From the IMG/VR virus record IMGVR_UViG_3300037509_000107, positions 1-62,717 of that record: 62,717 nt of DNA; one strand, given 5' to 3'. Shown here piece after piece: positions 2,746-24,904 of the stretch (the stretch's first letter is position 1; each line of letters opens with the position of its first letter). Both the position numbers and the translations under genes were made by a program. A model generated the notes under the pieces. The model did no database searches and was not told the origin of the DNA. It worked only from the letters and a program-made list of their open reading frames with translations. The DNA is from a virus (taxonomy: Duplodnaviria > Caudoviricetes).

Positions 2746-2957
2746 TTACGCCGGCCCCGCCGTCGAGCGACTGCGGGAGACCGCCCTGGTACGGGATAGC
2801 GGGCGGCCGCGGGCGAGACCCGGCCGGCGAGTGAAACCTTCGACGCGGGCGGCGACTGTCGCGTGTCCGACAGGCCGCCCACTCCACCGCGGCCGGGCGG
2901 CGCCGTCACTGGTTTGCCGGCGGCGCCGCCGGCCGCTTCTTTCCAAGGAACGATCTC

Positions 2958-3245
2958 ATGGGACTAACCCTCAACCGGCGCCGCGGCGAGACGGTCCTGG
3001 TCGGCGACGCGGCCGAGGCCCGGGTCGACTGGCTCGGCCACGGCGCCGTCCCGCGCGTCGGGCTGAGCGTCCGCGTGGCCGGCCAAGTCCGCTACGTCAC
3101 GATGCGGTGGCGCGAGCAGGTCCCGGTCGGCCCGGCGGTCGTGACGTTCTGCGGGATCTTCAACGGCGGGGCGCGGCTTGATTTCGCGGCCGACCGGTCG
3201 GTCAAGATCCTCCGGTCGGAGCTGGCGGCAACGGCCGCGACGTGA
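2958..3245 (+). CDS. csrA: CsrA/RsmA-like RNA-binding protein, apparently tandem double unit
   Basis: N-term LTLNRRRGETVLVGD and C-term GARLDFAADRSVKILRSEL match CsrA ends; 95 aa vs ~60 aa. Confidence 0.65.
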   Translation: MGLTLNRRRGETVLVGDAAEARVDWLGHGAVPRVGLSVRVAGQVRYVTMRWREQVPVGPAVVTFCGIFNGGARLDFAADRSVKILRSELAATAAT

Positions 3246-5210: not shown

Positions 5211-6256
5211 ATGCGACGATGGAGTTGCCGGCCGCGCCGGCGCAGTCCAACGGGAACGGCGGGACCGCGATCCAGCGGGCCAGCGTCTTCGAGCCGATGG
5301 CCAAGCGGTTCGGCACGTCCGTCGCCGGGCTCCGGCAGATCCTCAAGGCGACGGTGATCAAGGGCGCCGGCGGCCGCGAGGTCACCGAGGAAGAGATGGC
5401 CGCGTTCGCGATCGTGGCCAATCAGTACGGCCTCAACCCCTTCACCAAGGAGATTCACGCGTTCGCCGACCGCGGGCGGATCGTGCCCATCGTCGGGATC
5501 GACGGGTGGGCCCACATCGTGAACGCTCACCAGGAGTTCGACGGCTGCGACTTCCAGGAGGAAGAGGACCAGCAGGGCAACCCTCACAAGACAACGTGCC
5601 GTATGCACGTGAAGGGCCGGGGCCACCCCGTCACCGTCACCGAGCGGTACGCCGAGTGCCGGCGCGGGACCGAGCCGTGGAAGACGATGCCGTTCCGGAT
5701 GCTCCGGCACAAGGCGTTCATGCAGGCGGCCCGGCTCGCGTTCTCCGTCTCCGGTCTCTACGACGAAGACGAGGCGCGCGACATCATCGGCCACGCCGAC
5801 CCCACACTGGCGGCAGCACAAAGCATGGCCACCGGGAGCCGCACCGCGGGGGTCCTCAGGAAAGTTACCGAACGCCCCGTGTCCGAGAACCAAACTTTCG
5901 AGCCGACCGCCACGGCCGAGGACGCGCTGGCGGCTCAGGCCGCGGCGGACGGCGAGACGATCGAGGTCGACCGGGGAGCGGACGGCGACGCCAGTGATCA
6001 GGTGTCGCAGGCGCTGGACGGCGCGGCCCCCGACGTCTCGACCTGGGCGTCGACGCTCGCCGCGGCCGAAGAGGCCGCGCGGGCGATCGGCATGGACCCG
6101 GCCACCTTCGACACCGCGGTCAACCTGTACGTCGTGAAGGCCGGGGCGAAGGGCAAAGAAGACCGGAAGCTCAGCCGCCAGCAGCGGCTCGACCTGGTGG
6201 CGGCCGTGCGGGAGAAGCGGCTCAACCCCGACGGCACGATCAAGCCGGCGTCGTAA
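5207..6256 (+). CDS. bet: RecT/Bet single-strand annealing protein
   Basis: QYGLNPFTKEIHAF...PIVGIDGW...WKTMPFRMLRHKAFMQAARLAF. Confidence 0.9.
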   Translation: MNATMELPAAPAQSNGNGGTAIQRASVFEPMAKRFGTSVAGLRQILKATVIKGAGGREVTEEEMAAFAIVANQYGLNPFTKEIHAFADRGRIVPIVGIDGWAHIVNAHQEFDGCDFQEEEDQQGNPHKTTCRMHVKGRGHPVTVTERYAECRRGTEPWKTMPFRMLRHKAFMQAARLAFSVSGLYDEDEARDIIGHADPTLAAAQSMATGSRTAGVLRKVTERPVSENQTFEPTATAEDALAAQAAADGETIEVDRGADGDASDQVSQALDGAAPDVSTWASTLAAAEEAARAIGMDPATFDTAVNLYVVKAGAKGKEDRKLSRQQRLDLVAAVREKRLNPDGTIKPAS

Positions 6257-6497
6257 CCACGGCACTCCATCGGGCCACGGAGGTAAACACGGCCCGCAGT
6301 GCCGGCGCTGGTCCGCATCGCGAGCGGGCACACCGGAATTAAAGATCCTGCCACCGCCCTTGGCAGCGACGCCGACGCGCGACGGGGAGCCGATTGCACC
6401 GCGAGAGCGGGAGGCGTTGATCCGGGAGACCGCAGAGCGATGGAGCACGAGCCGCGCCCGACCGACGGGCCGGGCGCAGCTTTTGGAGGTAATGGCC

Positions 6498-6938
6498 ATG
6501 GACAAGGACAAGCCTTTCGAGTCGTGGGCGATCGTCGAGGTGATGGGCCACAAGCGGCTGGCCGGCTTCGTGTCGGAGCAGGCCGTCGGCGGCGCCAGCT
6601 TCATCCGCGTCGACGTGCCGGAGGCCGAGGTGCCGTCGCTGTACGGCCGCGACGCCGGGACGCCCGAGAAGCTGGCCGGGTTCACGCAACTGCTGGGCGC
6701 CGCCTCGATCTACGCGATCACGCCCTGCACCGAGGAAGTCGCCAAGCGGGCCGTTGCGTCGTTCCGCGCCCGGCCGGTGCAGCACCTCGACCTGTCGCCG
6801 CCCCGGGCGCTGCCGGCGCCGGCCACCGACGAGGACGGGGAGGCCGTCGAGACGCTGGATCGGCCGCGGGGGCACGACGTCAACGACGACTTCGAGGATG
6901 ACGACGACGGGGAGTGGGACGACCGCCCGGGCCACTAG
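6498..6938 (+). CDS. Conserved phage hypothetical protein
   Basis: GGAGGT RBS; WAIVEVMGH..LAG.VSEQ pattern; acidic tail. Confidence 0.7.
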   Translation: MDKDKPFESWAIVEVMGHKRLAGFVSEQAVGGASFIRVDVPEAEVPSLYGRDAGTPEKLAGFTQLLGAASIYAITPCTEEVAKRAVASFRARPVQHLDLSPPRALPAPATDEDGEAVETLDRPRGHDVNDDFEDDDDGEWDDRPGH

Positions 6939-6967
6939 CTCTCGGGCGGCCGCGACGGAGTGACCCG

Positions 6968-7223: not shown

Positions 7224-7427
7224 ATGACGACGGACCTTGCGGTGCCGCGGCTCGCTTACAACCAGCGGGACGCCGCCGCCCTGCTCAGCGTGAGTGACCG
7301 GACGCTGCGGCGGTGGGAGGCGTCGGGCCTGGTGCGGTCCGTGACGGTCGACGGCGTGAAGCTGTACCCGCGGGCGGAGCTGGAGCGGTTGGTCAAGTTG
7401 CCGCCGGCGGGCGGCGTGGAGGCGTGA
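7224..7427 (+). CDS. xis: Excisionase-like HTH (MerR/HTH_17)
   Basis: AYNQRDAAALLSVSDRTLRRWEASG directly upstream of integrase. Confidence 0.8.
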   Translation: MTTDLAVPRLAYNQRDAAALLSVSDRTLRRWEASGLVRSVTVDGVKLYPRAELERLVKLPPAGGVEA

Positions 7428-8914
7428 TCGTGGCGACGCTATCGAACAGCAACGGGCGGCGGGTGATCCAGTTTCCCGCGATCGGCGGCGGGCCGCGGGG
7501 CAAGCGGGCAACGGTCCGGCTCGGCAAGGTCGACGCGAAGACGGCGGCCGGCGTGCTGCTCCACGTGGAGCGGCTGATCGTCGCGGCCGAGACGCAGCAG
7601 CCCCCGCCGGCGGACACGGCCCGGTGGCTCGGGTCGATCGGGGGGAAGCTGCACGGCCGGCTGGCGGCCGCCGGCCTGGTTACGCCGCGGACGGCCCCGG
7701 CCCCCGCGCCGGCCGTCGCGATCGGCCCGTTCATCGACGGCTACCTGAAGCGGCGGACAGACCTGAAACAGTGGACGCTCCGGAACCTCGGGACGACCCG
7801 CCTCTGGCTGGTCCGGTTCTTCGGGGAGGGGCGCGACCTGAGGTCGGTCACCCGCGGCGACGCGCAGGACTTCCACCGGCACGTGCGGGCGGAGCTGGCC
7901 GGGGCGACGGCGTCGGGCCTGCTCAAGCGGTCGCGCATGATCTTCGAGGACGCGGTCGCCCGCGAGCTGATTGCGGCCAACCCGTTCCGCGGGATCAAGG
8001 CGGGCGGGCAGGCGAACCCCGCCCGCGCCCGGTACGTGCCGGCGGCCGACGTCGAGCGGGTGGTCGCCGCGTGCCCGTCGGCCGAGTGGCGGCTCGTGTT
8101 CGCCCTGGCCCGCTACGCCGGGCTCCGCACGCCGACGGAGCCGCAGGCCCTGCGGTGGGTCGACGTGGACTGGCAGCGCGGTCGGATGCTCGTTCACTCG
8201 AGTAAGACCGAGCACCACCAGGGGCGGGCCACGCGCCTCGTCCCGATCTTGCCGGCGCTGCTGCCCCACCTCCGCGACGCGTTCGAGCGGGCGGCCGAGG
8301 GGGCGGAGCACGTGATCCCGAGCCTCCGCGGCCGGGAGAACCTGAGGCGGCGCGCGCTGAAGATCGTCAAGCGGGCCGGGCTCGACCCGTGGCCCCGCCT
8401 GTTTCAGAACCTCCGGGCGAGCTGCGAGACGGACCTCACCGCCCTGGTGCCGCTGCACGTCGTGTGCGCGTGGATCGGCAACACCCAACTGATCGCCGCC
8501 CGGCACTACCTCCAGGTGACCGACGAGCACTTCGCCGCGGTGACCGGCGGCGGGGCCGGGGGCGCTGCACAAAGCGCTGCGGTCAATGGCGGACTACAGC
8601 GGACAGACCCCGAACCCGGGGCCATGGCAGCCGCGGAATCGGCCCCGGGAACGCGGGACGGCGGTTATTCGTTGTGCCGGAGGGGCTTAGAACCTTCGAC
8701 GGTTTCCCCTGAGAATCAACAGGTCGTGCATGAGGCGCTGCAAAAAGCGCTGCACGGCCCCCTCGCCCGCCGCTACTTCCAGTCACGGGGCCGGATCCGG
8801 GTACGGGTCCCCCGCCGGCCCCGGGTCGGACCCAAGCAGGCCGAGGCGTTCGCCCTGGTCCGTAGCCTGCTCAGTCGCCCCACCCCGGCCGCGCCGGCGG
8901 GGGTGGCGTCGTGA
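7424..8914 (+). CDS. int: Tyrosine recombinase / phage integrase
   Basis: ARYAGLRTPTE (R), KTEH, FQNLRASCET, WIGNT..IAARHYL (catalytic Y); start uncertain (GTG 7424 or 7430). Confidence 0.9.
   Translation: MIVATLSNSNGRRVIQFPAIGGGPRGKRATVRLGKVDAKTAAGVLLHVERLIVAAETQQPPPADTARWLGSIGGKLHGRLAAAGLVTPRTAPAPAPAVAIGPFIDGYLKRRTDLKQWTLRNLGTTRLWLVRFFGEGRDLRSVTRGDAQDFHRHVRAELAGATASGLLKRSRMIFEDAVARELIAANPFRGIKAGGQANPARARYVPAADVERVVAACPSAEWRLVFALARYAGLRTPTEPQALRWVDVDWQRGRMLVHSSKTEHHQGRATRLVPILPALLPHLRDAFERAAEGAEHVIPSLRGRENLRRRALKIVKRAGLDPWPRLFQNLRASCETDLTALVPLHVVCAWIGNTQLIAARHYLQVTDEHFAAVTGGGAGGAAQSAAVNGGLQRTDPEPGAMAAAESAPGTRDGGYSLCRRGLEPSTVSPENQQVVHEALQKALHGPLARRYFQSRGRIRVRVPRRPRVGPKQAEAFALVRSLLSRPTPAAPAGVAS
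8561..8753. other. Candidate attP: two arm-type repeats flanking a tRNA-3'-end-like core
   Basis: GGCGCTGCACAAAGCGCTGC (8561-8580) and GGCGCTGCAAAAAGCGCTGC (8734-8753); core GTGCCGGAGGGGCTTAGAACC near 8674-8694. Confidence 0.6.
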
Positions 8915-9411: not shown

Positions 9412-9758
9412 CCTCCTTCCTCGATGGACCCGCGGCCGGCGTCGTGCTCGACCTGAGGCGGGCGCCGCTCTTCCTCCGCGCCGTTTGCGGCCCCGGCGGC
9501 GAGCCGTGGGACGCGCTCGACCAGCTCGACGACAGACCAACGCCGGCTGAGGTGGTTCACGTCTACCGGCGGGAGGGGGAACCGAGCCACCTGCACTTGC
9601 TGATCCGTGGCGCGCGGAGCGGGCGGCGGTCCGGCTACTACACGGTCGCCCGGTACCGGTACGTGGAGCCGCAGCCGCCGGCCGACCAGGTGCGGGACAC
9701 GGCGATCTGGCGGGCGTGGTGCGAGCAGGCGGCGAGTGCCGCGGGGGTGGCACGTTGA
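9408..9758 (+). CDS. Hypothetical protein
   Basis: Coupled ORF; FLDGPAAG...WDALDQLDD.P pattern. Confidence 0.65.
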   Translation: MTSFLDGPAAGVVLDLRRAPLFLRAVCGPGGEPWDALDQLDDRPTPAEVVHVYRREGEPSHLHLLIRGARSGRRSGYYTVARYRYVEPQPPADQVRDTAIWRAWCEQAASAAGVAR

Positions 9759-10339
9759 GCACGTACCCCCCGAGTCTGCTCTTCCCCGACCCGTCGACCG
9801 ATGTCACGGCCAGCCCGCCGGCGACCCTTATGACACCGGTCGACTCGGGCTGGCGTCACGTCGTCAGCTTCTTCGTCCCCGGCACCCCGCGCCCCGGCGG
9901 CTCGAAGACCGCCACCGTGATCCGCCGCAAGGGCGGTCAGATCGTCATGACCGCGGCGGGCCGGCCGCTGATCACCATGCGCGACGACGGCGGCGAGAAG
10001 ACCGCCGACTGGAAACGCAACGTCGCCTACTTCGCCCGCGGTTCTTATTCGTCCGACCCGATCCCCCGCGGCGTCCCGATCCGGCTGGAGGTGACGTTCG
10101 TCATGCCGCGGTGCGCCTCGCACTTTGGCACGGGCAAGAACGCAGGGCGACTGAAGGCCAGCGCGCCGGCGGAGCACGTCACCAAGCCGGACCTGAGCAA
10201 GATCACCCGGTCAACCGAAGACGCGCTCACGGGGATTATCTGGGCCGACGACGCGGCCATTTCGCTTCAGGTGCTGAGCAAGGTGTACGGGGCCAAGGTC
10301 GGTGCCCACATTGCTGTGAGCGTGAAAGAAAACGCCTGA
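9755..10339 (+). CDS. rusA: RusA-family Holliday junction resolvase
   Basis: FFVPGTPRPGGSK...KPDLSKITRSTEDALTGIIWADDA. Confidence 0.9.
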   Translation: MSTYPPSLLFPDPSTDVTASPPATLMTPVDSGWRHVVSFFVPGTPRPGGSKTATVIRRKGGQIVMTAAGRPLITMRDDGGEKTADWKRNVAYFARGSYSSDPIPRGVPIRLEVTFVMPRCASHFGTGKNAGRLKASAPAEHVTKPDLSKITRSTEDALTGIIWADDAAISLQVLSKVYGAKVGAHIAVSVKENA

Positions 10340-10452
10340 TTTTCGAGGGTTTTTTATGCTTTTGGTGGACTCGAAAGGTATGATGGGCGGACCGGGAACG
10401 GTGCTGGAAACACCGCCCCGGCCCATCAGCAGACCTTTACAGGAGGTCCACC
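10328..10452 (+). promoter_or_regulatory. Conserved endonuclease leader, copy 1
   Basis: GCCTGATTTTCGAGGGTTTTT box, ATGCTT-17-TATGAT, hairpin, GACCT/AGGAGGTC RBS hairpin. Confidence 0.8.
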
Positions 10453-11313
10453 TTGCCCACGCGCACCTTATCCCGTCCGCGCCGGCCGGACAAGCAGAAA
10501 GCCACCGACGCGCAGGTCATCGCCGCATACCAGAAGGCGGGCTCCGTCAAGGCGGCCGGCCGGTTGCTCGGCATCGGCGGCGGGTCGGTTCACGAGCGAT
10601 TGAAGAAGCTGGGCGTCGCGTGCCCGAAGAAGGCTCGGCCCTGGACCGCGGCGGAGGAAGCCACGATCCGCAAGTGCTACGCGCAGTACCGCGGCCGCGG
10701 GACGGTCAAGACGCTGGCCGCCCGGCTGGGCCGGGACTACAGCACACTCGCCACCAAGGCAAAGGAGATGGGGCTGTCCGCTCACCCCAAGGTGAAGCCC
10801 TTCCTGCGGTCGATCCCGAACGAGACTGCGGCCCGTCGATGGTTCGACCGGTTCAAGCGGTCGTCGCTCGTGCTGGCGCAGTTCTGTGCCAAGTTCAAGA
10901 TCAGCGACGACGCAATGCGGACGCACGTCGCTTCGCGGTGGCCCGACGAGTGGGATGCGGTGATCGAATCGAAGGCACCGCGGCAGACCAGGTACCGGCT
11001 CGGCCGGCACTTCGAGTATCGCACGAGGGACCTGCTGCGCGACGCCGGCTACTTCGTCATGCGGTCGCCGCGGTCGCTGTCGATTGTGGACCTCGTGGCC
11101 ATCAAGACCGGCCGAGTCGTGTTCATCCAGTGCAAGCGGTCCGGCGGCATCTCGTCAACGGACTGGAACAAGCTGTTCGATTTGGCCGCCTCTGTCGGAG
11201 CGGTGCCGGTCCTTGCCGAGTGCTCCACGGGCCGCGGTACCTGTCTCTGGCGAATGACCGGTCGAAAGGACGGCGTGAAGCGGGCGCAGCCCCGCGAATC
11301 GTTCTTGCCGTAA
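10453..11313 (+). CDS. HTH-containing PD-(D/E)XK endonuclease with Hjc-like C-terminal domain
   Basis: GRHFEYRTRDLL..AGYFVMRS..S.SIVDLVAIK...FIQCKR; N-terminal HTH/Myb-like repeats. Confidence 0.75.
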   Translation: MPTRTLSRPRRPDKQKATDAQVIAAYQKAGSVKAAGRLLGIGGGSVHERLKKLGVACPKKARPWTAAEEATIRKCYAQYRGRGTVKTLAARLGRDYSTLATKAKEMGLSAHPKVKPFLRSIPNETAARRWFDRFKRSSLVLAQFCAKFKISDDAMRTHVASRWPDEWDAVIESKAPRQTRYRLGRHFEYRTRDLLRDAGYFVMRSPRSLSIVDLVAIKTGRVVFIQCKRSGGISSTDWNKLFDLAASVGAVPVLAECSTGRGTCLWRMTGRKDGVKRAQPRESFLP

Positions 11314-11344
11314 CCAATCAGCCATTGCCGGCCGGAGGTGACGC

Positions 11345-11980
11345 ATGACCTCCGTCGGCTCTTCTTCCCTGTTTCTCGGCCGCACGGCCGACGGCTCGGC
11401 GTTCTGGTGCGAGGCTCGCGACGGCGACGCCGAGGGTTTCGCGCTCGCGCGACGTCACTACTCGGCGGACAAGAACCGGTCGCCGAAGCAGCGTCGGTTC
11501 GTTGGTGCGGGCGAGAGGATGGTCCTCATTACCCCGACCGGCGACGGCCTGCTGGTCTGGCGAAAGTTCATCGACGACAGCGGGCAGACCGGCGTCAACT
11601 GCGCGATCTACAGGTACGAACGTCGCGCGGCAGACGCACCTCTGGCGAGCCTGCTCCTGCTCGACGGTATGGCGCTGGCTTGGCGGAAGTGGCCGGGCGA
11701 GCGTTTCTACACCTACATCAATCCTCGCAAGGTCAAGTCGGCCAATCCCGGCTACTGCTTCAAAGCGGCCGGCTGGTCCCTCGTGCGCGGGGTTGATGGG
11801 AAGCCAGTGCTGACAAAGCGGCGGAGGCTGCTGGTGCTGGAAGCGATGCCCGACGCACTAACCGGCATCCTCTGGGCGGATGACGCGGCGATCAGCCGGC
11901 AGGTCGTCGAGAAGCGGTACGGGGATAAGACCGGCGCACACATCACCCTCAGCGTGAAGGAGGACCATGCCACGACTTGA
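11345..11980 (+). CDS. Mom-like DNA-modification acetyltransferase-fold protein, C-terminally fused to a RusA tail
   Basis: RRHYS..., TYINPRKVKSANPGYCFKAAGW; last 42 aa resemble the RusA C-terminus. Confidence 0.6.
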   Translation: MTSVGSSSLFLGRTADGSAFWCEARDGDAEGFALARRHYSADKNRSPKQRRFVGAGERMVLITPTGDGLLVWRKFIDDSGQTGVNCAIYRYERRAADAPLASLLLLDGMALAWRKWPGERFYTYINPRKVKSANPGYCFKAAGWSLVRGVDGKPVLTKRRRLLVLEAMPDALTGILWADDAAISRQVVEKRYGDKTGAHITLSVKEDHATT

Positions 11981-12038
11981 AGTGCTCATCGGAATGATCG
12001 CCTCGGGCACGCGTGAGGAAGCCTTACGAGGTGCGTGA
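11967..12038 (+). pseudogene. Relic 5' end of the P-loop kinase gene
   Basis: MPRLEVLIGMIASG vs MPRLEVLVGMVGSG at 13121; AGGAGG RBS; truncated at the Walker A lysine. Confidence 0.75.
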
Positions 12039-12235
12039 TGCAGAGCCTGTGGCGACAAGCGCTCGGCTACTCCCGCCTGCGGTGGTGGGTGATGTGCCAC
12101 CTGCCGGGCTGGCCGTGGAAGCGTTGCGTCGAGTGTGGCCGGCTGTTCCTGCGGCAAACCTGGTGGTGGCCCAACCCGTTCGAAGAGCACTGCTCGCGTG
12201 AGTGTGCCGACGCCGAACTGGATCGCCTTGGATAG
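12035..12235 (+). CDS. Small Cys/Trp-rich (Zn-finger-like) protein
   Basis: CVECG...HCSREC. Confidence 0.55.
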   Translation: MMQSLWRQALGYSRLRWWVMCHLPGWPWKRCVECGRLFLRQTWWWPNPFEEHCSRECADAELDRLG

Positions 12236-12241
12236 CCCCCG

Positions 12242-12565
12242 ATGTCCGACGACGAACCGACCCAGGCTGAGCTCGATGACGCGACCGTGGAGGACACGGT
12301 CCACTGTGACCTCTGCGGTGCGCCGTGGGTGCTCGGCGGCCACGGCGACGGCATCATCGTACAGCCCACGCAGGCCACATGGTGGGCACTTGGGGGGCAG
12401 TTGAAGCTCTGCACAGACTGCGCCGTCTACGTTTCGCGCGTGCTGAGGGATGAGCTTGCCGAGCGCGACGTCTGCGAACACGGCGTCCTCTGCGGCGACT
12501 GGTGCGAGCCCTGCAATGCGGCCCACAAGCAGGCTCTGATCGACAACGGTGTCGGAGGCGACTGA
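12242..12565 (+). CDS. Small Cys-rich protein
   Basis: CDLCG, CTDC, CEHG..CGDWCEPC. Confidence 0.55.
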   Translation: MSDDEPTQAELDDATVEDTVHCDLCGAPWVLGGHGDGIIVQPTQATWWALGGQLKLCTDCAVYVSRVLRDELAERDVCEHGVLCGDWCEPCNAAHKQALIDNGVGGD

Positions 12566-12581
12566 CGCGGCTGGTTTGTGG

Positions 12582-12710
12582 GAAATCGCCTGTTTTTCCG
12601 AGGGTTTTTGAATGCTGCTGGTGACCTCACAAGGTATGATGGGCGGGCCGGGAACGGTGGTGGAACACCGCTCCGCGGCCCAACTCAGCGACCTGGTTAG
12701 GAGGTCACCG
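12582..12710 (+). promoter_or_regulatory. Conserved endonuclease leader, copy 2
   Basis: GCCTGTTTTTCCGAGGGTTTTT, ATGCTG-17-TATGAT, hairpin, GACCT/AGGAGGTC. Confidence 0.8.
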
Positions 12711-13133
12711 ATGCCCGAGCACACCGTAGACGGTGCGCCCTGCGCCGTCAATTCCACGTTCACCCGATCCTGCTCGAAGTGCGGGGCTCTCATCCGGCAT
12801 ACCCGGCTGAACAACCGCAACAAGGCCGCCGCGCTGCGGATCTCGTACGTCGGCCACGACGGGGCGGCGCGCACCTACACGGCCGACTTCCTGGTCGATG
12901 GTTCGACGCTGGTTGAGATCAAACCGAAGAAGCTTCACGCGACGCCGACCGTCCTCTTGAAACGGGCGGCCGCTGAGGCGTTCTGCGCCGCGGCGGGGCT
13001 GACCTACGAACTTGTTGACCAGCCCCCGCTGACGGATGCCGAAGTCGCCTCCCTGCGCGACAGCGGCGCGATCAAGTTCACCGACCGCTACGAGCAGAAA
13101 TACCTTGAAAGGAGCACTCAATGCCACGGTTAG
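12711..13133 (+). CDS. TnsA-N-like PD-(D/E)XK endonuclease (possibly internally deleted)
   Basis: ISYV...RTYTADFLVDG..LVEIKP...K..AAEAFC...GLTYEL. Confidence 0.7.
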   Translation: MPEHTVDGAPCAVNSTFTRSCSKCGALIRHTRLNNRNKAAALRISYVGHDGAARTYTADFLVDGSTLVEIKPKKLHATPTVLLKRAAAEAFCAAAGLTYELVDQPPLTDAEVASLRDSGAIKFTDRYEQKYLERSTQCHG

Positions 13134-13675
13134 AGGTTTTGGTGGGGATGGTAGGAAGCGGGAAGTCCACCTACGCCCGCCGCCGCGCGGACGAGGGCGC
13201 GATCGTGATCAGCCACGACGACCTCACGCAGATGCTCCACGCCCGCTACCGGTACGAGCAGGTGCTCCGCGACCAGTACCGGGCGGCCGAGGAAAAGCTG
13301 GCCCACGTGTTCCTGTCGGCCGGCCGCGACGTGGTGATCGACCGCACGCACCTGACGCGGGAGAGCCGCAAGCGGTGGGTCGACTTCACGAAGTGGCCCA
13401 ACTTCGCACACGACCGAGTGCCGGTGATCGCCGCCGTCACCTTCCCGATCGAGGCCCCCGAGGTGCACGCCCGGCGCCGGGTCGAGTGCGACGCGCGCGG
13501 CCGCTCCTACGACGACTGGCTCCGGGTCGCGCACCACCACTACCAGCAGTCGGTCGACGAGCCGCTCCACGCGAAGGACGAGGGGTTCGACTGGATCGAA
13601 GGCAATCGGTGGCGGATGCCCGTCGACCGCGGCTGTGAAGCCCCGGCGGCAGTGGCGCTCGGGTGCGACCGGTGA
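13121..13675 (+). CDS. P-loop kinase (AAA_33 / polynucleotide kinase-like)
   Basis: VLVGMVGSGKSTYA, ISHDDL, DVVIDRTH. Confidence 0.85.
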   Translation: MPRLEVLVGMVGSGKSTYARRRADEGAIVISHDDLTQMLHARYRYEQVLRDQYRAAEEKLAHVFLSAGRDVVIDRTHLTRESRKRWVDFTKWPNFAHDRVPVIAAVTFPIEAPEVHARRRVECDARGRSYDDWLRVAHHHYQQSVDEPLHAKDEGFDWIEGNRWRMPVDRGCEAPAAVALGCDR

Positions 13676-13842
13676 CCCGCCCCGCCCGCGATCCACGCGA
13701 CCGGCTGACGATCACCCTCGTCCCGGTCGGCAAGGGCCCGCCGGCGGCCGTGCGGTTCCGGCGGGTGCTGAAACTGTTGCTGAGGGGGTTCGGGCTCCGT
13801 GCCAGTTGGCCGGAGCAAAAGACCACGCGAAAGGAGAAGTGA
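13672..13842 (+). CDS. Small basic protein (PPAAVRFRRVLKLLLRGFGLR)
   Basis: Not in ORF track; GTGA and TGATG coupling on both sides; paralog at 41280. Confidence 0.7.
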   Translation: MTRPARDPRDRLTITLVPVGKGPPAAVRFRRVLKLLLRGFGLRASWPEQKTTRKEK

Positions 13843-14415: not shown

Positions 14416-15057
14416 ATGGATATCGAGGATCTGAAGGCGAGGGTTCGCCCGACGGTAGACCAGCACCTGGAACAGGAACGGGCTCGCTTGGACTACACAG
14501 TTAAGCGGGCGTGGGATCTCGGGAAAAGGGTTTGCGAGAGTGAGATCGAGGTGACCCTTCTCGCGGCCTGGATGGTGTGCAGCGAGACGAGTGACCACGT
14601 CCGCAAACGCCGGTCACAAATCAACGTGCGTGTACACGGGTACTGCGACCGTGACGACTACCTGCGTCCGCGACCCATCGGCCGCAAGGATGTCATCTGT
14701 GGCATCTTCACACGCGAGGTCCTGATTCCCCAATTCAAGGTCGGAGTCTATCGGGCAGACTTCGCCATTCAGCGATCCTCCCGCTACGGGGCCAAGCTGA
14801 GCCCTCGCGTACTCGTGGAGTGCGACGGCCACGACTTCCACGAGCGAACCAAGGAGCAGGCGCAGCGGGACAAGGCGCGCGATCGGGAGCTCCAAGCCGT
14901 CGGCTATTACGTCCTGCGCTTCACCGGCTCGGAGATCTGGAACGACGCCGCCGGGTGCGTCGAGCAGATCGACGCGTTCCTCGACTCCCACCTGATGGCC
15001 CCGGACCTGGCGGTGATCGACGCCGCTATCGAGGCGGAAGCGGCGGCGGCTCACTGA
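14416..15057 (+). CDS. DUF559/Vsr-like PD-(D/E)XK endonuclease
   Basis: CESEIE, PQFKVGVYRADF, VECDGHDFHE...RDKARDREL...GYYVLRFTGSEI. Confidence 0.85.
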   Translation: MDIEDLKARVRPTVDQHLEQERARLDYTVKRAWDLGKRVCESEIEVTLLAAWMVCSETSDHVRKRRSQINVRVHGYCDRDDYLRPRPIGRKDVICGIFTREVLIPQFKVGVYRADFAIQRSSRYGAKLSPRVLVECDGHDFHERTKEQAQRDKARDRELQAVGYYVLRFTGSEIWNDAAGCVEQIDAFLDSHLMAPDLAVIDAAIEAEAAAAH

Positions 15058-16703: not shown

Positions 16704-17050
16704 CGCGGCTGATCAACAACGCGGGGCTGAGCGGCGGCGAGTACGCGGCGTTCGGCCGCCTCGCCGGCGTGCTCCGCCAGGTCGGGCCGAGGCACGTCGC
16801 GCGGGTGACGTGCGAAGCGCCGGGCATGTACCGGGCGACAGTCTACCGACGGCCGCGGAAGTCGCTCCGGCTGGACCTCCCGCCGTCATACACGCTCGAC
16901 CCGGGGCTCACGGTGATCGGCGACTGGCCGACGGAAGAGGCCGCGGTCGAGGCGGCGAGCGACATGGTCGCGGGCCTGGGCAAGCCGAGGGTGTGTAACG
17001 GCGAGGATCTGGACGAGGTGCGACGGCTTCTCTCGGCCAACCAACTATGA
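16700..17050 (+). CDS. Hypothetical protein
   Basis: ATGA overlaps at both ends. Confidence 0.6.
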   Translation: MTRLINNAGLSGGEYAAFGRLAGVLRQVGPRHVARVTCEAPGMYRATVYRRPRKSLRLDLPPSYTLDPGLTVIGDWPTEEAAVEAASDMVAGLGKPRVCNGEDLDEVRRLLSANQL

Positions 17051-17811
17051 CCCCCTACTACGCCGACAACCTCGTGACGCTGTACCACGGGCATTGCCTT
17101 GATGTGCTGCCGCGCGTGCCCGACGCCGTGGCCGACCTGATCGTAACCGACCCACCCTTCTCTGTGTCGGTGGCCGGCGTCGGCCGGTGGGAGACGCGGT
17201 ACGGGCGGACGGATGATCTGGACTTCTTCGACGGCGACACCGACTGGAAGGCGATGACGGCGACCGTCGTCAACGCGGTCGCCATCGCCGTCCCGAAGCT
17301 AAAGCCGCACGGGTCACTCTACGTCTACTGCGGCCACCGCCAGTTCGGGCCGCTGGTCGCTCGCCTTGAGGACGACGGGTGGAGCACGCGGTTCCTCGTC
17401 TGGGCAAAGGAACACCCGGTGCCGCCCGCGCCGGGGTCCGGCTGGCCATCTGCCGCCGAGCTTTGTGTCTACGCCTACCGCGAGGGCCGGCGATGGACGC
17501 CGAAATCCTTCCGCGAGACGCCCCGATCGAACGTGCTGACGGCAGACAGCTACCGCCACGGCATGCCGGGGAAGACAGGCCACCCGACGCAGAAGCCGCT
17601 TCCGACGATCGAGCCACTGATCCTCGTCAGCAGCGAGCCGGGAGACTTAGTGCTGGACATGTTCGCGGGGAGCGGGACGACGCTGGTGTGCGCCAAGGCG
17701 GCGGGCCGTCGGGCCATCGGGATCGAGGTCAATGAAGAGTATTGCGAGATGGCCGCGAACCGGCTGCGACAGGGCGTGCTGTTCGGCGCGGAAAGTGTGG
17801 AAACTGCCTGA
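17047..17811 (+). CDS. N6-adenine/N4-cytosine DNA methyltransferase (beta class)
   Basis: TDPPF, HPTQKP, VLDMFAGSGTT. Confidence 0.92.
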   Translation: MTPYYADNLVTLYHGHCLDVLPRVPDAVADLIVTDPPFSVSVAGVGRWETRYGRTDDLDFFDGDTDWKAMTATVVNAVAIAVPKLKPHGSLYVYCGHRQFGPLVARLEDDGWSTRFLVWAKEHPVPPAPGSGWPSAAELCVYAYREGRRWTPKSFRETPRSNVLTADSYRHGMPGKTGHPTQKPLPTIEPLILVSSEPGDLVLDMFAGSGTTLVCAKAAGRRAIGIEVNEEYCEMAANRLRQGVLFGAESVETA

Positions 17812-17928
17812 TTTTCCGAGGGTTTTTCGATGCTAAATGGGGACGGATATGGTATGGTGGGCGACGCTGGAACGGGGTTCGTGGCCCCGCCCCAGCGCCA
17901 TCCGAACGACCTGTTAAGGAGGTCATCC
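17800..17928 (+). promoter_or_regulatory. Conserved endonuclease leader, copy 3
   Basis: GCCTGATTTTCCGAGGGTTTTT, ATGCTA-17-TATGGT, hairpin, GACCT/AGGAGGTC. Confidence 0.8.
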
Positions 17929-23039: not shown

Positions 23040-23342
23040 ATGGCACCCGGAGACTGGTACCTGCTCGGCGGGATGCTCGTCCTGCTGGCCACGTTCTTCC
23101 TCGCCGGCCTGGCGGTCGGCGACCACCGCGCGACCCGGAGCCGCGACGACTGGCGTGGCCGGGCGCAGAAGCTGGCGGCGACCAACCTGGAGCTGCACGC
23201 GTTCATCGGCGGCCGCGACGGCACGATCGAGCGGTTGCGGGAGGAAATCGTTGACCTGACGCACCAGCTACGCGCGGCGAAGGGCGAGGGGCCGGCGAAG
23301 GCTGCTGGCTTCTGGAACCGGATGAACGAGCGGAAGGCATGA
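23040..23342 (+). CDS. Membrane-anchored coiled-coil protein
   Basis: GGAGG RBS; N-terminal TM helix. Confidence 0.65.
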   Translation: MAPGDWYLLGGMLVLLATFFLAGLAVGDHRATRSRDDWRGRAQKLAATNLELHAFIGGRDGTIERLREEIVDLTHQLRAAKGEGPAKAAGFWNRMNERKA

Positions 23343-24034
23343 CCCCCTACTACACCGACAACCTCGTGACGCTGTACCACGGCGACTGCCGGGACATCCT
23401 CCCCTGGCTCACCGTGGCCGGCGATGTCGCGGTCGCGTCGGACCCGCCGTACGGGATCGGCCACCGGCACAGCGGTAAGGGGCGGCACGCGCACCACCAC
23501 GCCGAGCGGGGCCGGCGGAACGTGAACCTCGTCGCCGGGGACGACGAGCCGTTCGACCCGTCCCACCTGCTGGCGATGTTCGACAACGTGCTGCTATGGG
23601 GCGCGAACCACTACGCGAAGCGACTACCCGACGGCGGGCGGTGGCTGGCGTGGGACAAGTTGGCCGGGATGAAGGTAGAGGACTCGTTCAGCGACGTGGA
23701 GTTCGCGTGGCACAGCCGCGGGAAGGCGTCGCGGATCATCAACTTCGCGTGGAAGGGCGTCGCCTCGGTCAAGGCCGGCGAAGACAACGGCCGACGGTGG
23801 CACCCGACACAGAAGCCGGTCGGCGTGATGGTCTGGTCGATCGGCCAAACCGGCGTTGCGCCGGGCGGGACGATCATCGATCCGTACCTCGGCAGCGGAA
23901 CGACCGCCGTCGCGGCACGCCGTACCGGGCATCGGTTCATCGGGATTGAGATGGATGAGGGCCACCTGCGGACGGCGGTTCGGCGGCTCGCGCAGGGCGT
24001 GCTGGACTTCGGCGAAAGTGCGAAAAGTGCCTGA
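23339..24034 (+). CDS. N6-adenine DNA methyltransferase (beta class)
   Basis: SDPPYG, HPTQKP, IIDPYLGSGTT. Confidence 0.92.
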   Translation: MTPYYTDNLVTLYHGDCRDILPWLTVAGDVAVASDPPYGIGHRHSGKGRHAHHHAERGRRNVNLVAGDDEPFDPSHLLAMFDNVLLWGANHYAKRLPDGGRWLAWDKLAGMKVEDSFSDVEFAWHSRGKASRIINFAWKGVASVKAGEDNGRRWHPTQKPVGVMVWSIGQTGVAPGGTIIDPYLGSGTTAVAARRTGHRFIGIEMDEGHLRTAVRRLAQGVLDFGESAKSA

Positions 24035-24154
24035 TTTTCCGGGGATTCTATGACGCTGGAAATGGTGACGGATGTTAGAATGAGCGAGGCCGCGGCGGGG
24101 TGGAGCCCGACGCGACCTCTAACCACAAGCGGACCTGTTGAGGAGGCCCACGTC
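24022..24154 (+). promoter_or_regulatory. Conserved endonuclease leader, copy 4 (diverged)
   Basis: GCCTGATTTTCCGGGG, ACGCTG-17-TAGAAT, hairpin, GGACCT/AGGAGGCCC. Confidence 0.7.
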
Positions 24155-24904
24155 ATGGCTGACAGCCATTCTATCGACCCGCGGAAAGAGCGACAGCGTG
24201 AGTACGCCCGGCAGTGGCGAGCCAAGAACCGGGAGAAGCTGAGGCGGTATTACGAGCAGTACCGATCTGACCACCCGGAACTCAAAACTTACCACGCCAA
24301 TTACTACCAGACGAAGGAACGGCACCGCCGGGGGCCGCTGACCGACGCGCAGCGGGCCAAGCGGCGCGAGCGGTGGGCACGGAACCGGGAGCAGATCAAC
24401 GCGGCCCGGCGGGAGTGGCGTGCGAAGAACCGGGAGCGGGCCATTGAGATGGAGCGGCGGTCCCGGCAGAAGCATGCCCGCAAAAAGAAGCAGCGGGACC
24501 GAGAGTACCGGCGGAAGTACCCCGAGAAGTACCGGGCCAGCATCGCCGCAGCCAAGGCCGCCAAGCCAGAGCTGTACCGGATGATCGGCAGAGCGTCGGT
24601 GGCGAGGCGCAGGTCGCGGATGCGGGCGGCCCCGGTCGAGCTGGTCTCACTCGACGCCGTTTTCGCTCGCGACCAGATGCGGTGTCACCTTTGCGGCGGG
24701 CTGGTCGAGAAGGCGGACCGGACCATTGACCACCTCATCCCGGTCGTCCGCGGTGGCGCGTACGCCGAGTGGAACCTGATGACCGCCCACGAGCTTTGCA
24801 ACAAGGGCCGGGGTGCGCGGCAGATACTCCCCGAGGAAACGCGGGAGGCTGCCGCCGCCTACGTTGTCGCGCGGAACGCGCAGATCGCCGAGGCCGGACT
24901 ATGA
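24155..24904 (+). CDS. HNH endonuclease with long basic helical N-terminus
   Basis: RDQMRCHLCG...TIDHLIPVVRGG....NLMTAHELCN. Confidence 0.88.
   Translation: MADSHSIDPRKERQREYARQWRAKNREKLRRYYEQYRSDHPELKTYHANYYQTKERHRRGPLTDAQRAKRRERWARNREQINAARREWRAKNRERAIEMERRSRQKHARKKKQRDREYRRKYPEKYRASIAAAKAAKPELYRMIGRASVARRRSRMRAAPVELVSLDAVFARDQMRCHLCGGLVEKADRTIDHLIPVVRGGAYAEWNLMTAHELCNKGRGARQILPEETREAAAAYVVARNAQIAEAGL

Follow-up and report, generated by a model that had tools for sequence, protein, structure and literature searches.

The stretch of DNA analyzed here (hereafter the window) is the 62,717-base IMG/VR provirus record IMGVR_UViG_3300037509_000107, which has a GC content of ~70% and an estimated completeness of 72% and which, from an integrase at 7313-8914 on, has nearly all of its genes on the plus strand. 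Our subject is the region around its rusA gene, where the gene for a nuclease that we call H, a candidate homing-type endonuclease, lies between two copies of the rusA 3' end. From left to right (Table 1), the 5' two thirds of rusA (R) run into the tail in use (T1), followed by a leader repeat, H, and a gene of GNAT fold (M) that is joined to a second, stranded rusA tail (T2). Beyond T2 come a stranded head of a kinase gene (K2), two small open reading frames (ORFs), a second leader, a gene for a TnsA-like nuclease (E), and the kinase gene itself, which begins with the head in use (K1). The rusA start is probably at 9830, an uncertain assignment, as the ORF is open from 9716; its stop codon is at 10339.

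Table 1. Features of the rusA-kinase region in the window and rusA sequence beside H relatives in other loci (GC3, GC content at third codon positions; HMM, hidden Markov model)
Feature	Position	Strand	Evidence and remarks
rusA 5' two thirds (R)	9830-10219	+	Pfam RusA 2.5e-12; phrog_140 4.8e-19; GC3 0.91, backbone-like
T1, rusA tail in use	10220-10339	+	begins D-A-L-T; stop codon included
Leader 1	10328-10452	+	T-rich stretch, TATGAT box, GC hairpin, hairpin over AGGAGG ribosome-binding site
H, candidate homing-type endonuclease, 286 amino acids	10453-11313	+	Pfam Hjc 2.1e-6 (PF01870, 28.0 bits against a cutoff of 21.1)
M, GNAT-fold gene	11345-11851	+	phrog_24928 9.6e-18; own stop codon absent
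T2, stranded rusA tail	11852-11980	+	in-frame fusion to M; stop codon included
K2, stranded kinase head, 14 codons	11967-12008	+	11/14 residues and 24/42 bases match 13121-13162
Two small cysteine-rich ORFs	12035-12565 (12035-12235, 12242-12565)	+	program ORF list; no Pfam or PHROG match; no relatives in ~160 fetched loci
Leader 2	12582-12710	+	repeat search, gapped local alignment, compensatory-change analysis
E, TnsA-N-like PD-(D/E)XK nuclease	12711-13133	+	Pfam PF08722 5.2e-6; phrog_15427 9.7e-9
K1, kinase head in use	13121-13162	+	GC3 9/14 against 162/170 in the remaining kinase, p 0.001
Kinase body (AAA_33 / polynucleotide-kinase-like)	13163-13675	+	Pfam AAA_33 1.3e-15; phrog_505 2.3e-15
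L140, Chloroflexi contig (metagenome-assembled genome)	rusA 5533-6000, H 6001-6840, tail 6842-6946		tail begins D-A-L-T; E-value 9.4e-15 to its own rusA tail
L146			H then tail (HMM 111-144, E-value 1.9e-5, start ~3 codons later); cytosine methylase upstream, no rusA
L084 type			intact rusA upstream of H; no tail
L142/143			degenerate rusA-like gene downstream of H
L157	rusA head 2940-3007		head abuts H, E-value 0.19; no intact rusA within 3 kb
L147			very weak tail, E-value 7.8

The rusA 3' end is present twice, as the original prediction had claimed. A gap-free repeat of the last 37 rusA codons (10220-10330) lies at 11852-11962; the two agree in 27 of 37 residues and in 75 of 111 bases (68%), and tblastn, with the upstream frames as query and the downstream DNA as target, finds the second copy with an E-value of 1.4e-14. 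The first copy ends in ..SVKENA* at 10339 and the second in ..SVKEDHATT* at 11980. The second copy is in frame with the ORF at 11345-11980, which bears out the proposed fusion, and the two copies do enclose the leader repeat, an Hjc-like ORF, and a GNAT-fold ORF. The join itself falls between E130 and D131, both invariant among 27 aligned RusA proteins, placing it, as predicted, in a conserved acidic motif of RusA.

The gene in use is whole and the second copy is a piece of one. The ORF at 9830-10339 matches the whole RusA domain (PF05866) with 47.9 bits against a cutoff of 22.8, and it retains D121, E130, D131, D140, and D141, which are invariant in 27 relatives. T2 alone aligns to positions 89-123 of the same profile (E-value 4.5e-4) and, because it is a fragment, its 21.3 bits stay just below that cutoff; it also matches phrog_140 (5.7e-6) and a home-built RusA HMM of 69 sequences (1.5e-6), to which all HMM coordinates of tails given here refer. 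Judged by these profile matches, T2 is a piece of a RusA gene, with a domain too incomplete to count as a RusA protein. Compared with 26 rusA relatives, T2 is closer than T1 in 16 cases, further in 7, and tied in 3. Differences between the two tails are far more frequent at synonymous than at replacement sites (pS 0.77, pN 0.18), with synonymous sites near saturation, a pattern that indicates that T1 and T2 diverged as working genes and that T2 has not decayed. T1 differs in GC3 from the backbone genes (31/39 against 593/634, p 0.005), and its final 12 bases, the last four codons, already belong to the leader repeat.

The nuclease encoded between the two tails has the fold of an archaeal Holliday junction resolvase. 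H matches the archaeal Hjc structure 1gef both in a profile search against the PDB (3.3e-7) and in a Foldseek search (8.7e-5, with template modeling (TM) scores of 0.64-0.68 on the target). The structural model of H, with a predicted local distance difference test (pLDDT) score of 88, contains helical bundles at residues 19-53, 66-105, and 124-174, followed by the nuclease domain. H is like archaeal Hjc (PF01870) in the fold of residues 170-258 and in the E/D/K catalytic positions, and unlike it in having ~170 extra N-terminal residues, made up of three helix-turn-helix (HTH)-like modules, and a glutamine in place of the second glutamate. Across 35 relatives of H, the catalytic positions E188, D213, and K228 are invariant and Q226 is nearly so. 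The model suggests a combination of DNA-binding modules and a nuclease domain like that of free-standing homing endonucleases; profile matches of these modules to HTH_23 and SANT-like domains are weak. The H family comprises at least 132 metagenome proteins, which, if they have a name at all, carry the annotation 'Holliday junction resolvase' or 'hypothetical protein'. None was found in 50,697 cultured-phage records, and H was present in 2 of 401 sampled Chloroflexi genomes.

Sequence related to rusA recurs beside H in other genomes. Our comparison of H loci covered 14 that were distinct and full-length; 13 had usable flanks and were informative. In 5 of these 13 (the window, the L084 type, L140, L142/143, and L146), rusA sequence abuts H at an E-value below 1e-3, and L157 and L147 provide weak further cases, with a head and a tail, respectively. 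The closest parallel to the window is L140, in which H begins immediately after the last base of the rusA stop and is followed by a second tail that starts at the same D-A-L-T codons. A test for flanking duplications across all 14 H loci singled out the window and L140, the others giving short low-complexity matches (E-values of 1e-3 to 1e-2); a weak repeat in L142/L143 failed on closer look. Separately, the rusA-like ORF directly 3' of the H relative in L142 (1190-1570) has lost the conserved aspartates.

The same junction is also seen within single proteins. Scanning 120 H-family proteins, we found two, P0023 and P0034, in which an in-frame RusA tail, beginning L-D-A-I-T-G and covering HMM positions 107-148 (E-values 3-5e-6), is attached to H; the corresponding spans are 105-147 in the window and 103-146 in L140. 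Four others (P0064, P0093, P0042, and P0052) have RusA-head-like peptides of ~20 residues fused before H, with weak E-values of 0.03 to 1.4, and several H proteins terminate in peptides that by eye resemble the last strand of RusA. As a post hoc lead, the residues 'GII' occur in the tail of all three intact rusA genes linked to H and in 5 of 92 others.

The strandings in the window and in L140 look independent, because each stranded tail most resembles the tail of its own genome and synonymous change is near saturation. The nearest sequence to T2 of the window is T1 of the window (72%, next best 56%), and the nearest to T2 of L140 is T1 of L140 (66%, next best 49%; pS 0.59, pN 0.24 for that pair). 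Between the two loci, H is 47% identical and the stranded tails 43%. Given these values, and given that T2 of the window is no further than T1 from the 26 rusA relatives, each stranded tail belonged until recently to a functional rusA, one of a similar though different allele. The join is M to T2 in the window and H to T2 in L140; the same rusA codon has thus been joined to different DNA at least twice.

Codon bias hints at a direction in L140. There, the GC3 of the stranded tail (33/35) is close to that of the upstream backbone (192/208), with lower values in rusA (89/107), its tail in use (27/36), and H (230/279); the p values are 0.0018 for the upstream backbone against H and 0.046 for T1 against T2. 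This composition fits an imported rusA and H with the native tail left behind. In the window, a comparable sign of flanking sequence taken over from a donor is clear for the kinase head only. The original prediction held that a cassette entered rusA, restored the gene with its own diverged tail, and stranded the old one. Its first part gains from the recurrence of the layout in L140, P0023, P0034, and L146, from the mutually unrelated stranded tails, from the codon bias of L140, and from the way in which the replacement pieces interlock with cassette parts (below); its second part, that the stranded tail is the old one, agrees with the backbone-biased tail of L140 and is conjectural for the window, where T1 and T2 are alike in composition, as detailed below.

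The kinase gene to the right carries a duplication of its own, at its head. K2 copies the head of the kinase and opens with an ATG at 11967 that overlaps the T2 stop codon, and the likeness of K2 to the kinase stops within Walker A, after G-S-G. Because K2 copies the kinase head and overlaps T2, the 157 bases at 11852-12008 are the relic of an older, overlapping rusA-kinase junction. This relic separates a left insertion at 10220-11851, consisting of T1, leader, H, and M, from a right insertion at 12009-13162, consisting of the small ORFs, leader 2, E, and the kinase head. The best GC3 change point in the kinase lies at 13157-13163, at the homology break (permutation p 0.0065), and by its composition K1 is foreign to the remainder of the gene. 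Replacement piece and cassette interlock in both insertions: the final codons of T1 already belong to the leader repeat, and the last four codons of E lie inside the K1 head. Over the whole block 10220-13162, GC3 is 686/810, below that of the backbone genes. Both junctions, in rusA and in the kinase, lie in codons of catalytic motifs, and insertion in such codons is a habit of homing endonucleases. The stranded kinase head is absent from the original account of this locus.

Relatives in which rusA directly adjoins the kinase, which that account had proposed as a check, did not come to light. The kinase query had no match in IMG/VR, and ~160 loci fetched for comparison contained no homologue of the kinase, E, the small ORFs, or the neighboring genes; for E, likewise, a search of IMG/VR gave zero relatives.

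We also looked at the assembly of the region in run X1, a biocrust metagenome that is possibly the source sample and that offers an independent assembler, not independent data. The Logan contigs of X1 are identical to the region, with no other letters. One of them stops at 10218, the next spans 10189-11890, bridging both junctions by 31 and 39 letters, and a third resumes at 11861; neighbors overlap by 30 bases, and the depths are 18.2, 18.5, and 18.1. An assembly artefact, which the original prediction had listed as a possible refutation, is therefore not upheld: a contig with no differing letter bridges both junctions at the depth of its neighbors. Both overlap 30-mers occur once in the window, so the forks of the assembly graph at the cassette edges must come from some other DNA in the sample. 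A cassette-less or otherwise alternative rare allele in the sample would produce such forks, which we take as a hint of one. X1 contigs end also at ~13774-13803, in the spacer after the kinase.

On balance, we lean slightly towards a reading in which H is a free-standing homing-type endonuclease that has the rusA locus as its natural home and that settled there by one-sided repair. A rusA gene lacking the cassette would have been broken at or beside the invariant E|D-A-L-T codons, with H as the putative cutter, and the break would have been mended with a related phage as donor, one in which rusA preceded H and, in this lineage, also the leader and M. On the left side, repair would have run through homologous rusA sequence, so that the donor tail T1 entered with the cassette and rusA stayed whole; on the right side, where there was no homology, the donor DNA would have been joined straight to the broken end, stranding the recipient tail T2. 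The kinase would be the mirror image of this event, with the TnsA-like nuclease cassette at 12009-13162 bringing a replacement head and stranding the old head K2, and with E as the suspected cutter. The 157-base relic would then be the remainder of the original rusA-kinase junction. The duplications, the relic, the interlocked replacement pieces, the repeated finding of this junction next to H in other genomes, and the fold of the nuclease are observations; that the breaks were made by H (and E) and mended by one-sided repair is what we infer from them.

Several observations weigh against this reading. Cleavage by H and its mobility are predictions from sequence, and the canonical third acidic residue of Hjc, the second glutamate of E...D...E-x-K, is Q226 in the H family. 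Because H is Hjc-like, the genome slot that it shares with rusA could stem from function and not from targeting. In 6 of the 13 informative H loci, there is neither rusA within 3 kb nor a flanking duplication. The junction is not always at D-A-L-T, because among the H relatives there are some with shorter tail ends or with rusA heads fused in frame, and in those lineages H may simply have replaced rusA. Composition in the window fails to separate T1 from T2 (GC3 of 0.78 against 0.81), and a GC3 change point inside rusA is not significant (p 0.11). The forks in X1, at 10218|10219 and 11860|11861 (one base ahead of the D codon on the left, nine bases inside T2 on the right), differ from the positions expected of a plain join of R to T2, and the near-equal depths permit a rare variant only. 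An empty allele did not turn up directly: a search of IMG/VR with the T2 30-mer gave 0 matches, the closest rusA proteins in a set of 5.8 billion proteins were at most 62% identical, and no close relative of the phage was found.

The remnants of rusA beside H bear most directly on an alternative in which H is a working resolvase of the Hjc type that landed illegitimately in the rusA slot and displaced the gene in situ, the heads and tails being scars, with intact rusA recombined in later and no targeted cleavage involved. Many H relatives have rusA head or tail remnants and no intact rusA, and this observation keeps such displacement alive: L146 combines H and a tail with no rusA, in L157 a rusA head alone abuts H, four H proteins begin in a RusA-head-like manner, several end like the last RusA strand, and the fold of H is that of Hjc. 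We consider this scenario an unlikely, if serious, contender. It leaves three things unexplained: the shared starting codon of mutually unrelated tails in three or more lineages, the finding that the nearest relative of each stranded tail is the in-use tail of the same genome, and the lack of decay in the stranded tails. Moreover, homologous exchange cannot turn an arrangement of head, H, and tail into R-T1-H-T2, and the reverse needs deletions only. Less probable still, in our view, is ordinary phage mosaicism, whereby two random illegitimate joins left behind a foreign 157-base piece of rusA and kinase, and the likeness to L140 reflects one old H-tail junction inherited by descent and refreshed by gene conversion. 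The low GC3 across 10220-13162 (686/810 against 593/634) would allow arrival as one piece, and the identity of H between the window and L140 is near that of the stranded tails. Recent conversion is contradicted, however, by the near-saturated synonymous sites of T1 and T2, and a non-coding tail kept since the H lineages split should be unrecognizable, whereas T2 resembles the rest of the family no less than T1. The join at the same rusA codon, to M in the window and to H in L140, was in addition made at least twice.

Site-specific insertion of the integrase type into a gene's 3' part, where the attachment site carries the replacement end, would give an outcome of the same shape, in which the gene is restored by the tail of the element and the old tail lies at the far junction; phage 21 and e14 in icd are examples of insertions that carry a replacement gene end. 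We regard it as highly improbable here, where 10220-13162 contains no recombinase gene, the insert in L140 is a single nuclease gene, and an identical core is absent, with 11 matches among the initial 14 bases of the two junctions. That the region is a chimeric contig is scarcely credible. The window does come from a metagenome assembly and the Logan contigs break at the cassette edges, but the two copies share no 14-mer and so cannot have misled an assembler, the bridging Logan contig has no differing letter and a depth equal to that of its neighbors, and the same architecture occurs in unrelated records.

The closest known kinds of element would be the hybrid genes made by mitochondrial mobile ORFs (mORFs) and the homing endonuclease gene islands (HEG-islands) of phages, and what would be new here is the nuclease family and its target. 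In fungal mitochondria, mORFs have produced hybrid genes in atp6, atp9, cox2, and nad3 of Glomus (Beaudet et al. 2013, PMC3630166), and atp6 of Allomyces macrogynus is a further mORF hybrid, for which endonuclease activity was shown (Paquin et al. 1994, as cited in PMC3630166). As described there, the order of parts is that seen in the window, with a native 5' part, a foreign C-terminus, the endonuclease ORF, and the native C-terminus downstream. The mORF duplicates have a DNA identity of 64-81% with mostly synonymous change, comparable to the 68% found here, and an mORF insert may run in frame without a stop, as M::T2 does (PMC3630166). Unlike the mORF enzymes described in that report, which are of the LAGLIDADG or GIY-YIG type and reside in organelle genomes, H joins a PD-(D/E)XK nuclease of the Hjc fold to predicted HTH modules and resides in a prophage, and, unlike the Allomyces enzyme, it is known here from sequence and a model. 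Also unlike in mORFs, the leader and M ride along in the window, and the mirrored event proposed for the kinase would have replaced a head, not a tail.

HEG-islands of vibriophage ICP1-like phages contain gene fragments beside nucleases, and the authors who described them propose that subsequent homing events use these fragments as substrates for recombination (Barth, Dunham and Seed 2023, PMC10055350). Like the present locus, they are bracketed by several nuclease genes, their small ORFs are fragments of neighboring genes, and a PD-(D/E)XK homing gene is mentioned among them (PMC10055350). They differ in that mostly T5orf172, HNH, and GIY-YIG enzymes surround essential cargo (PMC10055350), and their description in section 22 of PMC10055350 includes neither a gene-saving replacement of ends nor a recurrent junction codon. 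The seg and mob genes of T4 exemplify intronless homing, and one-sided repair has been described in the homing of T4 introns (Edgell, Gibb and Belfort 2010, PMC2988022; for one-sided illegitimate repair of double-strand breaks also Parker et al. 1999, as cited in PMC2988022). The resemblance to seg and mob lies in a free-standing nuclease gene beside its presumed target gene; in T4, too, homology on one side only leads to junctions near the cut, and phage insertions fall in functionally critical codons (PMC2988022). The insertions listed there, mobE in nrdA and mobA in gene 60, leave the gene in two parts that give separate polypeptides, whereas here the duplicate end keeps rusA whole; in PMC2988022 the word stem 'duplicat' is absent. 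Within the open-access literature that we searched, we found nothing on a nuclease cassette in rusA or on an Hjc-like homing endonuclease.

If the homing reading of H is true, a family with an Hjc fold and HTH modules would join the homing endonucleases, and the hybrid-gene trick of fungal mitochondrial mORFs, in which a conserved codon is invaded, a spare end brought along, and the old one stranded, would operate in bacterial viruses as well. Stranded gene ends fused to neighboring ORFs, such as M::T2, would then be traps for annotation, as well as markers of recent gene flow among phages. More tentatively, and with doubt as to the whole, we propose that the H family may be a widespread, unrecognized class of phage homing enzymes with an Hjc-type fold that preys on the analogous resolvase gene rusA, either bringing a spare tail, which lets rusA survive, or taking over both start and end of rusA and with them its function (head::H::tail). 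The stranded tail would be kept as a right homology arm for a further invasion, and 10220-13162 would move as an island with two nucleases between the D-A-L-T site of rusA and the P-loop site of the kinase, perhaps still polymorphic in its source community.

The leader that precedes H is a repeat of ~115 bases present in three copies, at 10328-10452, 12582-12710, and ~17808-17908. Gapped local alignment pairs 10328-10436 with 12582-12694, and a repeat search gives 83% identity over a 63-base core. Every copy ends in a conserved hairpin over AGGAGG directly 5' of an ORF that starts with M-P (start codons TTG at 10453, ATG at 12711, and GTG at 17909), and two of these three ORFs encode nucleases. 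Compensatory changes occur in 7 of 32 predicted leader pairs, a count that is based on three sequences only. The leader matches no Rfam family, and a sigma-70 scan of 9700-13800 found no promoter.

M, the other gene of the left insertion, is complete and merely lacks a stop: relatives of its 169 N-terminal residues normally terminate, with the pattern ..L.ILE..P, no more than a few residues from the join. Its description as Mom-like in the original prediction is sound at the level of the fold, which is GNAT, and does not extend to the family. Mom of phage Mu (8bv8) ranks only 15th among the GNAT structure matches (E-value 1.3e-3), and none of 17 M relatives matches the Pfam Mom profile (PF25680) or any acyltransferase model at an E-value of 1 or below; a weak Atlas lead (0.87) connects M to a cluster in which 23% of the members have PF25680. 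In L086-L088, the M (GNAT-fold) domain forms the N-terminus of much larger proteins (more than 1000 residues) with DNA-methylase-like C-termini.

Elsewhere in the window, a tRNA-Met gene lies at 1194-1265, 6 kb upstream of the integrase. Downstream of the kinase, an ORF for a DUF559 / MTES_1575 nuclease at 14416-15057 has a GC3 of 0.80 amid backbone-like genes (0.94) and is the third small nuclease inside 5 kb. Two N6/N4 DNA methylase genes, at 17047-17811 and 23339-24034 with 6.3 kb between them, are 31% identical overall. Their first 110 bases are 72% alike, their last 74 bases, taken together with the start of the next leader-like sequence, are 74% alike, and this pairing of similar ends with different middles may mark another exchange boundary. 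Directly 3' of the second methylase gene and a truncated leader-like start lies an HNH endonuclease ORF, at 24050-24904.

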